Shown: positions 1,807 to 7,891 of the stretch, piece by piece
How positions within the stretch are numbered: position 1 is the first letter of the stretch
Layout: each line of letters opens with the position of its first letter
DNA from: a virus
Taxonomy: Duplodnaviria > Heunggongvirae > Uroviricota > Caudoviricetes
Length of the DNA stretch: 9,824 nt
IMG/VR virus record: IMGVR_UViG_2619619133_000002
Span: 1-9,824 of that record
Direction: 5' to 3' (one strand)
The notes under the pieces: generated by a model
What the model was told of the DNA's origin: nothing
What the model saw: only the letters and a program-made list of their open reading frames with translations
Database searches by the model: none
Made by a program: the position numbers and the translations under genes

Positions 1807-2617
1807 GGATTACTCCGGATACCGAACCGTTGAGCATCTCGATAACTTCCCGCCGCTTGTCGTAGCACGGCCCCTCAATGTTGTACCCGGCGGTGGTGAT
1901 GGCCCACATCAGTGGCTGACGTCGCGCGCCCATCCCGGTAAGCATCGTGGTATAAAGCGCATCGGTGGCGTGCTCGTGATATTCATCCACCACGGCACAG
2001 TGGGGTGATGAACCATCACCGGGGTTACCGATCAGCGGTTCAAACCGCGCGCCATCCTCCGGACGGTTCATGTTTGAGGCGTTAACCTCAATCCCGAACG
2101 CTTCCGTCAGCATGGGTGTGCGTTTACACATCAGTCGCGCCGGGCGAAAGACTTCCCACGCCTGTTTCTCTGTCGTGGCACCGGAATACACTTCCGCGCC
2201 AAACTCGTTATCACAGGCAAAACAATACAGGGCAACACCGGCAGAGATTGCCGATTTGCCGTTCTTACGGGGGATTTCGGTATACCCCTCCCTGAAGCGG
2301 CGCAGCCGGGAGCCTTTATTGACCCAGCCAAACGCACAGCAGATCACAAAGAGCTGCCACGGTTCCAGCGTGATGGGCATCCTCTTGAATGCCCACTCCC
2401 CCTTGGTGTGTGGCAACAGCTGAATAAATTTCGCGGCCCGTTCAGCCAGGTCCTTGTCGAAGCGGTAACGAAACGACTTACTTTTTTCCGCCATCAGGTC
2501 ATCAAGATGGCGCTGGCAGGCCTGAATCACAAACTGGCAGGCCACAATCTTTCCGCGCACGACATCACGGGCATACTGATTGGCAGCATTTACGTTGGGG
2601 TAAGATTTCCGGCTCAT
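1769..2617 (-). pseudogene. terL: terminase large subunit (HK97/Terminase_1-like), truncated: ATPase domain only
   Basis: Walker A-like PRKNGKS and Walker B-like AVVDEYHE are present. Only 282 aa are encoded, against roughly 550 aa or more expected; there is no nuclease domain. The frame ends 37 nt inside the next gene. ATG overlaps the terS stop (ATGA). Confidence 0.75.
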
Positions 2618-3108
2618 GATTCGATGATTTTCAGAAACGGGTTAGTGGCTTTCTTCTGCCCCGCCAGGCCAATCAGACGCTGGCGGCTGCTGGGGTCGAG
2701 TCCGAGCATTGCCCCCGTGCTGCTCATCTCGGACTCCTGTTCTTTCTTGGCGGTCAGCTCCGGATTTTTGACCATGCCACCCATTGCACCGGTGATGGTG
2801 TTGCCCTGTCTGGCAATATTTTTCACGGCACGCCGCCAGAACTCGTAGGCCACGCACCACCGCTCAAGCACCGCGAGGTCAGTCACGCACAGCAGGCCCT
2901 GACCGCAGAGTTCTTTGGTTGTCAGTTGCCACATGATCGTGGCGAGAGGGAGATCTTCTTCAGCGAACCACTCCGGTGGCTCAACACCTTTGATGGGCGT
3001 AAAAACAGGTTCATCTTTATTCAGGGCTCGCTTGCCGGGGTTTCCGGCCAGCGCCTTGCGCGCCGTTGGCTTGGGGCGACGCCCGGACCCCCCCGCCGTT
3101 CCAGCCAT
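2614..3108 (-). CDS. terS: terminase small subunit, P27 family
   Basis: N-terminal [26 protein letters not shown] is typical of P27-family TerS. ATG at 3108 has GGAG about 11 nt upstream; the ORF track starts at an in-frame GTG at 3117. It overlaps the terL start. Confidence 0.8.
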
Positions 3109-3143
3109 ATGCGGCACTCCTGGTTAAATTTCATTTTTCGCGG

Positions 3144-3210
3144 GTATAAAAAAACGAGGGGGCGGGCAGTCCGGAAGACGTCAGGTCACAGGGATGTGCC
3201 CCGCCCCTCC
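3144..3210 (-). terminator. GC-rich imperfect palindrome followed by a T7 run on the minus strand: putative intrinsic terminator and/or cos-region element between HNH and terS
   Basis: Arms CGAGGGGGCGGGCA (3155-3168) and TGCCCCGCCCCTCC (3197-3210) pair with two bulges. The loop contains the GACGTC palindrome. The minus strand reads stem then TTTTTTTA. Confidence 0.45.
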
Positions 3211-3233
3211 CCTCAGACAGTTGAGAGTTATTA

Positions 3234-3584
3234 TCACTTTAACCGTTCACGGACCGTCTTCGCCTTATGACACGGCCAACACAGACTCTGCAGATTACAG
3301 TCGGCATCAGTGCCGCCATGCGCTTTAGGGATGATGTGGTCAACGGTTTTCGCCTCACGCACCACACCGGCACGCAGACATAACTGACATAAACCTTTGT
3401 CACGCTTCAGCACACGCGCGCGGATAGCGTCCCACTTCGAACCATAACCGCGCTGATGACGGGACTGACCTGGCTTGTATTGCTTCCAGCCTTCGCTTTT
3501 GTGGCTTTCGCAGTAGCCTGACGGGTCTGTGGTTGTAGAGCGGCAGCCGCGAACACGGCAGGCTTTTGGGGTTCGTGGTGGCAT
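3234..3584 (-). CDS. phage HNH endonuclease (terminase-associated)
   Basis: 116 aa with CxxC...H...N...H...CxxCH signature (CRVRGC, CESH, DHIIPKAHGG, CWPCH). Position immediately upstream of terS is typical of HK97-like packaging modules. ATG has GGAG upstream. Confidence 0.85.
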   Translation of the reverse strand: MPPRTPKACRVRGCRSTTTDPSGYCESHKSEGWKQYKPGQSRHQRGYGSKWDAIRARVLKRDKGLCQLCLRAGVVREAKTVDHIIPKAHGGTDADCNLQSLCWPCHKAKTVRERLK

Positions 3585-3593
3585 TGGTAAGCT

Positions 3594-3628
3594 CCAATAA
3601 AAAAGCCACCATCGATTGCTAGTGGCTT
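3594..3628 (-). terminator. putative Rho-independent terminator downstream of the moron ORF
   Basis: 7-bp stem AAGCCAC / GTGGCTT (3603-3609 and 3622-3628) with a 12-nt loop, followed on the minus strand by TTTTTTATT. Confidence 0.45.
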
Positions 3629-3654
3629 AGCATCTACTAATGTGAAGAGTAGGT

Positions 3655-4413
3655 TTATTTTTTCTTCTTATTTAACTTATCTAAATTGACGGGATCTTTC
3701 CCTGTGGCAGCTAAACACCAAAAAGAATAACTCTTTTGCATGACATAGGTTCTAATTCTCTCTAATGTTTCATTATATTTTTTCTCAACAACCTGTATCG
3801 CATGTTCAAATAAATTAATCATATCAACATGCTCGTCCTCGACACCAATCATGCTCAGTTGTTTTCTATCTGTCACTGCTTGATAAAATGTTTTCCCATT
3901 TTTCCTTATTAGTAACAATGAAGTTTCTGCTGACTCATAGTCTTGGTTGCCGCTATGTGCTGCAAAATTATGCCTGTAGTTAATAATACAGTCATGCAAC
4001 CCAAAATATTCAGAATCAAGCCAATCACGCTCCATCTTTAACTTTCTCCCTTTAGCTTCAGAGAAAGCTTTACCATAAAACGTTAGGCTTGCCACAAATA
4101 ACGCTCTAATTTCACTTGATAAATCTAGATCAAGTATATTCCCGTATAACTTGCCATCTGTCCTTAATTCGTTTCTCCCTGCCAGTTCATTAGCTATTTG
4201 GTACCACTCTTTAGCACTTTTTAAGTCCCTATGAATTAGTGACAGTGAAGATGCTCTATCGGCAATACGCCCACTCAATTTTATGCGATCTACAATTTCA
4301 TTATTGAATGTATAAACCGCTTTAAATTCCCCCGTTTCGGAATCAATATAATATTCAACATCTAACCCTTCATATGATTCACACCCGGGACCTTCTAATT
4401 TTTTTCTTTTCAT
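3655..4413 (-). CDS. hypothetical protein in an AT-rich moron; contains an Rx5H motif (possible HEPN-like RNase)
   Basis: Long ORF in a sharply AT-rich island between Rz and HNH. ATG at 4413 is used here; the ORF track starts at an in-frame TTG at 4437. Motif NYRHNFAAH lies at 3955-3975. No family recognised by eye. Confidence 0.55.
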   Translation of the reverse strand: MKRKKLEGPGCESYEGLDVEYYIDSETGEFKAVYTFNNEIVDRIKLSGRIADRASSLSLIHRDLKSAKEWYQIANELAGRNELRTDGKLYGNILDLDLSSEIRALFVASLTFYGKAFSEAKGRKLKMERDWLDSEYFGLHDCIINYRHNFAAHSGNQDYESAETSLLLIRKNGKTFYQAVTDRKQLSMIGVEDEHVDMINLFEHAIQVVEKKYNETLERIRTYVMQKSYSFWCLAATGKDPVNLDKLNKKKK

Positions 4414-4494
4414 ATAGAATATCCATATACGTTTCAATTCTCAGTCAGCATAGTAGAAAAAAAAGATGTCCAGATCCATACATCGAAAGCAATT

Positions 4495-4959
4495 TTAGTT
4501 TTCACACTGACTAGAGATATAGTCCTGCAATGCTCTTATCTGTTTATAACTGATTTCAATTCTCTCTCTGAGGGTGAAATAATCCCGTTGAGCGGTGTCA
4601 GTAAGTCGGGGGGCGGTAGCATCATCCAGGCTGGTGGTAATGGTCGTTGATTGCACTCTCGGGCAACTAGCGGCGAGGAACAGCCGCTTAGTGCCAACAG
4701 CAACATCACGCTGAAGCTGTTCAATAGTTGCTTTAGCATTTGCAAGTTCTCCGGTGTATTTCGCATCGAGCGCAGAAACATCACGCTGGCGCTGCTGCAT
4801 CTCAGTAATGGTGGCGTTCGCCTGGCTGAGTTTTTCCTTCGCTTTATCGCGCTGTTCTTTGTAGGCGATGGCGTTATCACGATAATGATTAACAGCCCAT
4901 GATAGGCAGACGATGGTGCAGATAACCAGAGAGGACAGAATCGCAGTTACTCTACTCAT
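4495..4959 (-). CDS. Rz: i-spanin Rz
   Basis: [31 protein letters not shown]... is near-identical in pattern to lambda Rz as recalled. ATG at 4959 overlaps the end of R by 8 nt (ATGAGTAG). The ORF track's longer form begins at a TTG inside R. Confidence 0.85.
4536..4739 (-). CDS. Rz1: o-spanin Rz1 lipoprotein, embedded in the +1 frame of Rz
   Basis: [20 protein letters not shown] has a signal peptide and lipobox (LSGC). The proline-rich mature part [27 protein letters not shown] resembles lambda Rz1. Confidence 0.75.
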
Positions 4960-5434
4960 ATAGCTGAATTTCTCTGACCGTTCCGCCCGATTCTTTGAAT
5001 TTTTCAATCAGGCTGTCAACCTTATGTTCGAACTGACCATAACCAGCGCCCGGCAATGACGCCCAGATATTGCTGCAACGATCAATAGCCTGACGGATAT
5101 CGCCGCGATCAATCATCGGTAAAGCACCACGCTCTTTAATCTGCTGCAATGCCACAGCATCCTGGCTTTTTGGAGAGAAGTCTTTCAGCCCAAGCTGCTT
5201 ACGGTAAGCATCCCACCAGCGTGAAAGAAGCTGATAACGTCCTGCGGCTGTTGATTTAAGTTTCGGGTTTAGCGTGACAAGTTTGCGAGGGTGATCGGAG
5301 TAATCAGTGAACAGTTCACCTCCGACAATAACGTCATAACCGTGGTTACGTGTCGGTTGTCGCCCGTTATCCGTTCCTTCTGACCATGCCACCATATCGA
5401 GGAAAGCTTTACGCTGGGAATTTAGTACCTGCAT
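4952..5434 (-). CDS. R: endolysin, lambda R-type lytic transglycosylase
   Basis: [47 protein letters not shown]... matches lambda R as recalled along its whole length (160 aa). Confidence 0.9.
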
Positions 5435-5437
5435 AAA

Positions 5438-5764
5438 TTACTCCTTAGAGCCACCAAACTTATTACCGATTACTCTCATTGCAGCCCCACGAATAGCATC
5501 GACCCCGATCAGCCCAACGCCGCCACCAATGGCAACAGAAAGAGATTTAGGCCATCCGACATACTCAAGAGCGGATGCAAAAGTCAGCGTCAGAGCACCA
5601 CAGAGCAAAATCTCGAGCGTTTTTCGTTTCCAGCCACCACCACCGCCAAAATAGGCAATGCGCAAGCCAGCCATAACGATCGACATAATCACTGCGCCCA
5701 GCGGTGTGTCTCCACGCCACCAGCTCTGGACCAACTCCAGCCAGGTATTTGGGTTATGAGGCAT
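5438..5764 (-). CDS. S: holin, lambda S-like class I (three predicted TM segments)
   Basis: 108 aa with three hydrophobic segments and a G-rich loop (AYFGGGGGWKRKTL), comparable to the lambda/P22 S holin layout. Stop lies 3 nt from the R start. Confidence 0.8.
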   Translation of the reverse strand: MPHNPNTWLELVQSWWRGDTPLGAVIMSIVMAGLRIAYFGGGGGWKRKTLEILLCGALTLTFASALEYVGWPKSLSVAIGGGVGLIGVDAIRGAAMRVIGNKFGGSKE

Positions 5765-6060: not shown

Positions 6061-7002
6061 ATGAGTACAGAAAATAAGAATAAAACCAGGCGAGTGAGAG
6101 TTGGTTTTTTCACTGGTAATGGAAGCAAAAAAGATGGCACATCTGCTGCAAAACTAGCCTTTGAGCAAATGACCACAGCAGATACTGTAACTTTTCCAAT
6201 AACTTACACAACAGACACCCCAAATCGAGGGTTAAAGTTAGTTATTCTTCAAAAAGATACCACACTGCAATGTTACTTTGGTTACGTATCGTGGAGAAGG
6301 GAATGCCTACTACCGTTCATCGAGGATGCTACAGGTAGTGAGAGAACAATTCCTTTAAATGATAAAGATTCTGTAGTTGAAAGAACATATTTTATCTATT
6401 ACTACGAAACGGACTTATTAGCTATGACCCTCAACCATATAGGGCCCAAAGTAAATGATCTGGCATTCATTTTGTATAACAAAACTGATTTAAAAAGCGT
6501 CACTTTTGAAGCCATTTGGAAACAAGAGAGCATGAAGGAACTGCTTGAGGACGGAAATATCCTACGTAGTTTCGATCTTATAGTTGCTGCTCCAAGAAAC
6601 TTTAACAAAGCTAATTATAAGATTAAAAACCCTTTAGCTAATGAAATTATTGACATGGTTGTTGGTATGGGCGGGTCGCATCTAAGATTAAATATGCGAG
6701 GTCGGATTCGCCCGAAAAAACAAGGGTTTAACTATCTAAAAACTTCTGTCACCGATGCTATTAAGGAACTACTTGAACTTTTTCCAAAAGGTTCTGGAGG
6801 TCTAAAAATTAAAAAAATTGATGTAACAGAGCCATCCAATAGAACGCCCAAAAGTCTACTTGACCAAGTATTGGTCAGTACAAAGACAATCATTGTCAAA
6901 AGCGGTTATCCATCCGATTCTGATATCAGAACGGCGATGATATCTGCTAAAATTGATAACGCGAACTATCTTGCACAGTATGAGCTCGCTAGCAGAGACT
7001 AA
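6061..7002 (+). CDS. hypothetical protein, 313 aa, soluble; first gene of the AT-rich cargo operon
   Basis: Long ORF in an AT-rich island, on the opposite strand to all flanking phage genes. ATG is preceded by an in-frame TAA. No motif or family recognised by eye. Confidence 0.6.
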   Translation: MSTENKNKTRRVRVGFFTGNGSKKDGTSAAKLAFEQMTTADTVTFPITYTTDTPNRGLKLVILQKDTTLQCYFGYVSWRRECLLPFIEDATGSERTIPLNDKDSVVERTYFIYYYETDLLAMTLNHIGPKVNDLAFILYNKTDLKSVTFEAIWKQESMKELLEDGNILRSFDLIVAAPRNFNKANYKIKNPLANEIIDMVVGMGGSHLRLNMRGRIRPKKQGFNYLKTSVTDAIKELLELFPKGSGGLKIKKIDVTEPSNRTPKSLLDQVLVSTKTIIVKSGYPSDSDIRTAMISAKIDNANYLAQYELASRD

Positions 7003-7023
7003 TAACCAAGCATGGAGGACACA

Positions 7024-7473
7024 ATGAGAGAATTAGCCACTTTTCTCTGGAAATGCGTCCTCTGGATTCTGTTGACCTATGCAGCGACAAAACTGTTTAA
7101 ACCGATGAAGCATGCTGACGTACTCACAACAGCGGGGGTGCTCTCGACTATATCAGGCATCCTGTTTGGTTTTGTTCTGGCTGCAATATCTATATTTAGT
7201 AGTGCAAACAGCGATAAGGAAGGAGCAATTAATGCCCTTAAGCAAAACAACGTGTTACCAACTCTGGTAAATAGATTACTTTCAACAGGGTTAACTCTCA
7301 TCGTCGCATGTATATTTCCATTGATAGCGATGTTTCTACCTGATGATGTTATTGTTGCGGGCAAACCTATTGATTTCCTATTCATACTGTTAGGCTTATC
7401 CTCCCTTATAATTTCGCTATATACCTTCGGAAGGTGTTGGTTAGTGTTACGAAAAATCTTCCCCCACTTGTGA
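7024..7473 (+). CDS. small integral membrane protein, 3-4 predicted TM helices; second gene of the cargo operon
   Basis: ATG at 7024 has a perfect GGAGGA 6 nt upstream; the ORF track starts at ATG 7012. Four hydrophobic stretches (FLWKCVLWILLTYAA, GVLSTISGILFGFVLAAISIF, LLSTGLTLIVACIFPLIAMFL, IDFLFILLGLSSLIISLYTF). Starts 21 nt after the upstream gene. Confidence 0.6.
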   Translation: MRELATFLWKCVLWILLTYAATKLFKPMKHADVLTTAGVLSTISGILFGFVLAAISIFSSANSDKEGAINALKQNNVLPTLVNRLLSTGLTLIVACIFPLIAMFLPDDVIVAGKPIDFLFILLGLSSLIISLYTFGRCWLVLRKIFPHL

Positions 7474-7508: not shown

Positions 7509-7874
7509 CTAAGCGTCCATTTCAAGGTTAACATCCAACATTGAAAGGCAACCATCAATAAATCCTTCGGCTAGTTGTATTTCTATGCGTACCAATTTTT
7601 CATCCTTTCCACGCACCTTTGCAATCTTACGCTTGGATATTCTGTATAAATAATGTGCCACAAGCAGCGAGTGCTCATCTGGCTTTTTTTGCTTTAGACG
7701 AGCAAGACAACCTTCAATAATTAATGCATCACTATCTGAACAAGCCTGACGTGTTTTGCTTGTGTAGGGAAGAAGCCCCTTAAACCCAGCAGCTATAGGC
7801 GAATAGTCTACTCCAGAACTATCACTCGCCGCCCATGCTCCCCAACGCTCCAGAACCATCTGAATATCACGCAT
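7509..7874 (-). CDS. Q: late antiterminator Q (phage 82 / QuuD-type)
   Basis: MRDIQMVLERWGAWAA... matches the N-terminus of E. coli prophage QuuD-family Q proteins as recalled. ATG at 7874 has GGAG upstream; the ORF track begins one codon earlier at TTG. Confidence 0.85.
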   Translation of the reverse strand: MRDIQMVLERWGAWAASDSSGVDYSPIAAGFKGLLPYTSKTRQACSDSDALIIEGCLARLKQKKPDEHSLLVAHYLYRISKRKIAKVRGKDEKLVRIEIQLAEGFIDGCLSMLDVNLEMDA

Positions 7875-7891
7875 CAACTTTCTCCACCAAA

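Follow-up and report, generated by a model that had tools for sequence, protein, structure and literature searches.

The minus strand of positions ~3122–3214 of the window (the whole stretch of 9,824 nucleotides analysed here, from IMG/VR record IMGVR_UViG_2619619133_000002) is very probably the cos site of a lambdoid prophage of the SfV/SfI/e14 type, present here as a relic, with the GC-rich palindrome within it as a by-product. At such a site the terminase and an HNH endonuclease would cut concatemeric DNA into unit genomes. A first-pass annotation had suggested that a cos region lies here, as part of an HNH-associated packaging module like that of HK97, and this is borne out by the cohesive end mapped in Shigella phage SfI and by the conserved register of sequence blocks around it. 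The site belongs to a family with experimentally mapped cos (SfI/SfV, HK97) and is thus already known; nothing fundamental is changed, mechanism and site having been described for SfI/SfV and HK97. A cross-family block architecture and a predicted binding site for small terminases (TerS) of family PF05119 are a modest, testable by-product of the comparison.

The packaging locus and its cohesive end

Genes in the HNH–terS part of the window all lie on the minus strand, in the order Q, holin, endolysin, Rz, an unknown ORF, HNH, terS and a terL fragment:

7509–7877, minus: Q (PF06530)
5438–5764, minus: holin, lambda family (PF05106)
4952–5434, minus: endolysin
4495–5007, minus: Rz (PF03245)
3234–3584, minus: HNH endonuclease gene, 116 aa (PF01844, E = 1.1e-14; similarity to HK97 gp74, E = 2e-10)
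3117–3121, minus: AGGAG ribosome-binding site of terS, read from the sequence and kept in all family members
2614–3108 (3117 if the start is GTG), minus: terS, small terminase, 164 aa from ATG (PF05119, E = 2.3e-21)
1769–2617, minus: truncated terL, residues 1–266 of 577 plus 16 unrelated residues, nuclease domain lost

The HNH gene carries the same annotation in RefSeq for a 99%-identical relative, and its matches point to a product that serves as the nuclease partnering the terminase in packaging of the HK97 type. TerS is 98–99% identical to that of SfIV. The 116 bp previously given for the HNH–terS gap is right to the GTG codon, the distance to the ATG used as start by relatives being 125 bp. 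The earlier description of the element as a mosaic stands for terS (PF05119, named ‘P27 family’ in RefSeq), for the HK97-like TerL and HNH and for the lambda-family holin, but TerS itself is not HK97-like. The closest Q proteins are those of the cdtI phage (87%) and of Stx phages.

Several other features of the window lie outside the packaging module. The 260-aa ORF between Rz and HNH (3655–4437, minus) is AT-rich (34–38% GC vs 55–61% in the flanks), has no match in Pfam or PADLOC and occupies a position like that of a moron insertion; 3′ of it lies a canonical terminator (3603–3628, minus; 9-bp stem, 8-nt loop, T-run). Two plus-strand ORFs (6061–7002 and 7012–7473) run opposite to their neighbours between Q and the holin, an interval that is a classic cargo position in lambdoid phages; no family could be assigned to either with confidence, the sole hit being a sub-threshold one to DUF4064. 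Convergent tail-fibre-assembly genes (10–447, plus; 419–1024, minus; both PF02413) adjoin a tail-fibre gene with a Collar domain (1021–1806), an arrangement that resembles the invertible tail-fibre segment of e14-type prophages.

The prophage is defective. Its terL fragment matches the intact TerL of E. coli FREC5 at 265/266 residues and then diverges, DNA similarity to intact prophages stops at ~1820, and positions 1–1821 match ymfQ, tail-fibre and tail-fibre-assembly genes, to which terL is joined directly near 1821. The truncation of terL and the identity of the adjoining segment imply that the portal, protease, capsid and most tail genes of an e14/SfV-type prophage have been deleted. TerS and HNH are intact and TerL is truncated; lacking the nuclease half of terL and the head genes, the prophage would carry its cos as a relic, which only a related helper phage could cut, in trans. 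The word remnant in the first-pass annotation is apt in view of the truncated terL and the loss of head and tail genes.

In SfI, run-off sequencing of virion DNA outward from primers in HNH and terS revealed a 10-nt gap relative to the prophage, TGCCCGCCCC, and packaging was concluded to follow a cos mechanism (PMC3636060). The same 10-mer is terminal in the SfI record. The window contains it exactly, on the minus strand at 3168..3159, in the palindrome arm nearer to terS, and its flanks are near-identical to those of SfI. In HK97 and phi1026b it corresponds in the alignment to the terminal 10 nt (CGCCGCCAAA and CGCCCGCTTC, respectively). The cohesive end of a related phage thus falls within the proposed region, in the comparison that the first-pass annotation had named as its check. 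Positions are numbered below from the predicted top-strand nick, with +1 at 3158. Nicks would be made at 3159|3158 on the coding strand and at 3169|3168 on the other strand, leaving 10-nt 3′ overhangs; the bottom-strand nick between 3168 and 3169 is predicted from the SfI gap and the HK97 record. A 3′ polarity in the SfV/SfI lineage is suggested by the SfI ‘gap’ and by analogy with HK97 (PMC9410871) and phi644-2/phiE125 (PMC2920897).

A megablast search of 2900–3450 against phage records returned Shigella phages SfV, SfIV, SfII and SfI and Salmonella phage ST64B. The SfV and SfIV records are linearised within the HNH–terS gap, and those of SfI, SfII and ST64B break in the gap or at its edge. 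In window coordinates the records start at 3175 (SfV, U82619; SfIV, KC814930), 3233 (SfII, KC736978) and 3124 (ST64B, AY055382). As these starts differ, and the end mapped in SfI lies at 3158/3159, most record ends in this group appear to be conventions and not mapped termini; the SfV GenBank record begins 7 nt upstream of the 10-mer mapped in SfI, so that the published ends of the lineage are not fully consistent. One IMG/VR contig (IMGVR_UViG_2630968705_000007; L053) ends in ...TTCCGGACTG, 2 nt into the cohesive-end 10-mer, as expected of an assembly break at a physical cos end.

Taken as found, the site lies between HNH and terS on one strand, directly upstream of terS–terL, contains a mapped cohesive-end sequence, and has flanks in register with those of HK97 and phi1026b.

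Block architecture of the cos site

Nick-anchored, almost gapless alignment of HK97, phi1026b and 40 prophage sites from Gamma- and Betaproteobacteria revealed a common order of blocks: a G-rich segment is followed by one resembling TCAAATC, after which come a variable spacer and AC, the C-rich overhang of 10 nt, a tract rich in T, and CCCGCGAAA at +15. In the window these are:

3199–3214, minus: G-rich block GAGGGGAGGGGCGGGG (−56..−41), forming most of the left palindrome arm and placed as is lambda cosQ; candidate recognition block by position
3190–3198, minus: CACATCCCT (−40..−32), local form of a conserved TCAAATCTCT / TCGAAAGTCT block in the alignment of 40 sites
3173–3189, minus: variable spacer, including GACGTC (3177–3182), its sequence not conserved across the family
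3169–3170, minus: AC (−12, −11), beside the predicted bottom-strand nick, in 40/40 sequences
3159–3168, minus: cohesive end TGCCCGCCCC, cosN equivalent, identical to the 10-nt gap of SfI, inside the right palindrome arm
3148–3154, minus: T7 tract (+5..+11); 5–7 T in 40/40 sites (mean 5.9), whatever hairpin lies upstream
3124–3144, minus: CCCGCGAAAAATGAAATTTAA (+15..+35), candidate TerS-binding site and cosB equivalent, lying mostly outside the segment first singled out

The 40 sites come from a scan of one genome per bacterial species with the pattern CCCGCGAAAWWWRAAATTY followed by AGGAG, which gave 47 loci, almost all between an HNH homologue (33–94% identity) and a TerS homologue (43–98%). 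The 40 distinct sequences among them align with only rare single-base gaps. Since CCCGCGAAA was part of the search pattern, its invariance in this set is by construction; the G residues at −48..−46 and the AC at −12/−11 lie outside the pattern. G is found at −48..−46 in all 40 sites and at −49, −43 and −42 in at least 90% of these diverse sequences; the same frequency holds for C at −4 and −6 and for G at −9. At −38, 39/40 have A, the single C being that of the window; FREC5, the closest E. coli relative and not one of the 40, also has C. Unusual bases in the window are those at −41, −38 and +1. In several lineages the spacer holds small, unrelated palindromes.

Independent evidence for CCCGCGAAA is confined to three phages found through TerS protein similarity, phi1026b (51% identical), Pseudomonas SC_8_H2H8 (49%) and Moraxella Mcat30 (46%), all with the same layout and with CCCGCGAAA or CCGCGAAA kept upstream of these 46–51%-identical TerS homologues. 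Psychrobacter Psymv2 (TerS 41%) keeps the upstream blocks and has GAGCGTTTAA, not CCGCGAAA, at +15, while Klebsiella ST101-KPC2phi6.3, found by DNA similarity to this region of the window, keeps both the layout and the +15 element. Vibrio phage P2 (TerS 49% identical) has no HNH–terS gap, so the architecture is not universal for the PF05119 TerS family.

HK97 has a G-rich block at the same offset, and its equivalent of the −40..−32 block is TCAAATCT, in the same register. Nick-anchored and ungapped, HK97 and SfI are identical at 29/56 positions from −56 to −1, a value reached by 2/20,000 shuffles; they share the G-run followed by TCAAATCT in register, and GAC before the C-rich 10-mer. In these alignments, which need hardly any gaps, the conserved architecture extends from enterobacteria to Pseudomonas, Burkholderiales and Moraxellaceae, and HK97 shares the part upstream of the nick. 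Chance is far from accounting for the agreement with cos sites mapped in related phages. We searched the literature available to us for an earlier cross-family comparison of these cos sites and found none.

Three loci of Phytopseudomonas / Pseudomonas (L118, L129, L130; TerS 56–57% identical) represent a variant with no HNH homologue detected in the locus, in which the G-block lies nearer the overhang and ~14 extra bases (ACGGGGGGAGCC...) separate the C-rich segment from the T-tract. Genes annotated as ‘holin’ lie directly upstream of cos/terS in two phages (phi1026b gp82, L089:208–564; Vibrio phage P2, L140:335–694): the gp82 translation reads like the HNH protein of the window, and the P2 record itself carries the note ‘hnh endonuclease protein structure’.

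Complete cos-type sites without an adjoining TerS or HNH homologue were found in Pseudomonas sp. Ant30-3 (L093:7428–7560) and Azotobacter chroococcum (L104:246–400). Both were considered as cos-carrying satellites and rejected, being deletion remnants that parallel the window: in the latter the start of terS is decayed, and in the former an ORF resembling a lambda gpI-type tail gene is fused directly with the cos site and ribosome-binding site.

The inverted repeat and its possible roles

The inverted repeat reported by the first-pass annotation is present, with arm limits that differ from those given (3155–3168/3197–3210) by 1 nt. Its arms (3156–3168 and 3197–3209) are 13 nt long and 28 nt apart, with 11/13 pairs (85% complementary) and a perfect 8-bp core (GGGGCGGG/CCCGCCCC, at 3200–3207/3159–3166). 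The GACGTC described as central exists at 3177–3182, but its centre (3179.5) is 3 nt from that of the palindrome (3182.5), and it is therefore not strictly central. Taken bare, the palindrome stands out only marginally: 163/2000 dinucleotide-preserving shuffles of the gap contained an inverted repeat with an equal or better score. The hairpin has an energy of −29.0 kcal/mol (z = −1.64), with 32/500 shuffles folding equally well; for the fold of the whole gap, z = −1.14.

Hairpin covariation was tested in four ways: with RNAalifold, by pair counts in two registers, and by within- versus between-genome duplex energy. RNAalifold gave no consensus hairpin for the 40 homologous sites (−1.96 kcal/mol). 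Across the same sites, paired cells made up 62.3% for the 11-pair stem of the window (62.4% when shuffled) and 72.0% for the 8-bp core (72.0% when shuffled), and the duplex between G-block and overhang was no better within a genome (mean −21.3 kcal/mol) than between different genomes (−20.4). As own partners pair no better than foreign ones, the complementarity is what any G-rich and C-rich blocks would show. The palindrome thus appears to be a by-product of the G-rich block facing the C-rich overhang and not to be needed for cos function. As a conserved or defining element of cos it fails, showing no covariation at the 40 sites and being weaker in the functional phages SfV and SfI and in each of the 1,150 E. 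coli genomes with the site. GGGTCA faces CCCCATC (CCCCGTC in SfI) in these two phages, in the E. coli relatives closest to the window and in 80 relatives from IMG/VR, giving 9/13 pairs.

Pairing in the window is the strongest of the 40 sites (−28.6), owing to substitutions at 3199 (−41; G for T) and 3158 (+1; C for A/G), which bring the number of pairs in the palindrome from 9/13 to 11/13. The best E. coli match to the gap (98.5%) differs at exactly these two positions, and the two substitutions together occur in 0/5,426 complete E. coli genomes; in the family at large each of these positions is polymorphic. The two changes, each turning a mismatch into a G–C pair, could be a coincidence at polymorphic positions or could reflect a template-switch ‘palindrome correction’.

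A role as an intrinsic terminator or attenuator in the late transcript, besides or instead of cos, by which the hairpin and U7 would stop polymerase not modified by Q before the packaging genes, is unlikely, and what had been proposed as a terminator amounts to a resemblance. The resemblance itself is clear. The minus-strand T7 run reported after the stem is indeed there, and the transcribed strand has a GC-rich stem (−29 to −31 kcal/mol) whose end at 3156 is separated from U7 (3154–3148) by a single G; the SfV-type sequence folds too (−26.9 kcal/mol), and the T-rich tract is conserved and strand-specific in 40/40 relatives. Intrinsic terminators are, however, compact hairpins with a loop of about 3–8 nt, and the loop here is 28 nt. 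A promoter/terminator scan made no call in the gap, its sole call being the canonical terminator that already lies upstream of HNH (3603–3628), and an Rfam scan of 2900–3700 at E up to 1 returned nothing in the gap. The fold is not clearly better than those of the shuffles, the 40 sites yield no consensus hairpin, and stem pairing equals that of shuffled controls, with no compensatory changes keeping the stem in homologous sites. At Pseudomonas-type sites ~5 nt separate the best complementary stretch from the T-tract, a tract conserved regardless of any stem.

Still less likely, and very doubtful on the covariation results, is that the inverted repeat is a functional element through which terminase and HNH recognise cos, whether by extrusion as a cruciform or by offering a binding site with two-fold symmetry. 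It would account for the position of the cohesive end inside one arm and for the G-rich and C-rich blocks facing each other in every member (duplex −14 to −29 kcal/mol), and a few enterobacterial lineages do pair better with their own partner arm than with a foreign one. Against this, duplex energies are about the same within and between sequences, the palindrome is centred at −24.5, 19 bp away from the midpoint of the nicks (−5.5), SfV and SfI, both functional phages, reach only 9/13 pairs, and there is hardly any complementarity between G-block and overhang in HK97 and phi1026b. Finally, that the palindrome is a chance feature of GC-rich intergenic DNA, in a gap with no sequence-specific function, is almost certainly wrong: a comparable inverted repeat does appear in 8% of dinucleotide-preserving shuffles, but the gap is 90–98.5% identical in 1,150/5,426 E. 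coli genomes, contains an experimentally mapped cohesive end, and keeps its blocks across bacterial classes while the adjacent proteins fall to 33–50% identity.

Candidate TerS site and comparison with known cos systems

Within the preferred reading of the gap as a cos site, the blocks may be assigned to proteins. In HK97, TerS binds +15..+29 of its own cos (CTAACCCGATTTTTT; CCCG plus an A:T tract), where it recognises a single G:C pair and the shape of the A:T tract beside it (PMC11331095), and the HNH protein GP74 stimulates cos cleavage (PMC11331095, PMC9410871). The numbering of the HK97 record is that of the TerS–DNA structure paper (T16, C:G pair at 21, A:T run 24–29). The conserved element of CCCGCGAAA plus A:T likewise starts at +15 (3144), which points to 3144–3124 as the TerS site of the window. 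From position and conservation we infer the proteins assigned to the G-block and the CCCGCGAAA block: the upstream half (G-block, TCAAATC-like block, AC and C-rich overhang) would be read by TerL and HNH, and the downstream half (T-tract, then CCCGCGAAAAATGAAATTT from +15) would be where the PF05119 small terminase binds.

In an intact close relative, TerL is homologous to HK97 gp2, with 26% identity over 522 residues (E = 4e-30). BLASTP found no similarity between the window TerS and HK97 gp1, gp1 had no PF05119 hit in Pfam, and no relationship was found between the window TerS and PDB sequences. ‘HK97-like’ accordingly holds for TerL and HNH and not for TerS, and the analogy between the TerS sites rests on position, not on homology. 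Homologous TerL and HNH alongside an unrelated TerS fit a site in which the DNA upstream of the nick is HK97-like and that downstream is not. The upstream half is common to HK97 and to phages of at least four proteobacterial orders. We tentatively propose, as a possibility a little short of evenly balanced, that cos is modular, its upstream half travelling with TerL/HNH and its downstream half being swapped with the TerS family, where CCCGCGAAA plus A:T at +15 would be the PF05119 element.

PF05119 is a very common small-terminase family for which we know of no solved DNA complex, and the modular reading, if true, provides a testable DNA target for its (‘P27-family’) TerS proteins. For annotation, the packaging site and predicted genome ends are fixed for a prophage family present in ~1/5 of complete E. 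coli genomes, the copy in the window being a relic in a prophage unable to package itself. The order of G-block, AC, 10-nt C-rich segment, T-tract and CCCGCGAAA may serve as a signature for the cos of HNH / PF05119-TerS phages across Proteobacteria, and the comparison also yields a testable prediction of where TerS binds.

The closest known systems are those of the e14-like lambdoid phages SfI, SfV, SfII and SfIV of Shigella flexneri, in which cos also lies between HNH and terS with the identical 10-mer TGCCCGCCCC, at 89–98% DNA identity over the matching surrounding stretches. They differ in that the window prophage is without the 3′ half of terL and without head and tail genes, and its site would have no action in cis.

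HK97 cos has a 10-nt 3′ overhang and needs TerS gp1, TerL gp2 and HNH gp74 (PMC9410871, PMC11331095). It shares with the window the HNH–cos–terS order, the G-block and TCAAATCT at equal distance from the nick, GAC before the C-rich 10-mer, an element of CCCG plus A:T tract from ~+15, and homologous TerL and HNH. In contrast, its TerS belongs to another sequence family, +15..+29 reads CTAACCCGATTTTTT in HK97 and CCCGCGAAAAATGAA in the window, and the HNH stop codon is ~320 bp from the end in HK97 and 65 bp in the window.

In the Burkholderia phages, CGCCCGCTTC is reported as the 3′ single-stranded extension of phi644-2 and the cos site of phiE125 and phi1026b (PMC2920897); it forms the last 10 nt of phi1026b. 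These phages have a TerS of the same family as the window (51% identity) and the same block order and spacing, including CCCGCGAAA, and phi1026b has a probable HNH gene, apparently mis-annotated as holin. They differ in the overhang sequence, in a T4 instead of a T7 run, in a G-block that is not complementary to the overhang and in a separate small hairpin in the spacer.

Phage lambda has 12-nt 5′ overhangs, no need for an HNH protein and, to our knowledge, no sequence similarity between its cos and that of the window. Its cosN has partial symmetry centred on the nicks, whereas in the window the symmetry is centred at −24.5 and the nick midpoint lies at −5.5. The late transcript of lambda reads through cos, as that of the window would. 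Lambda cos (cosQ–cosN–cosB) comprises an upstream element, a nicking site and a downstream small-terminase site beside the terminase genes, and this three-part layout is shared by the site in the window.
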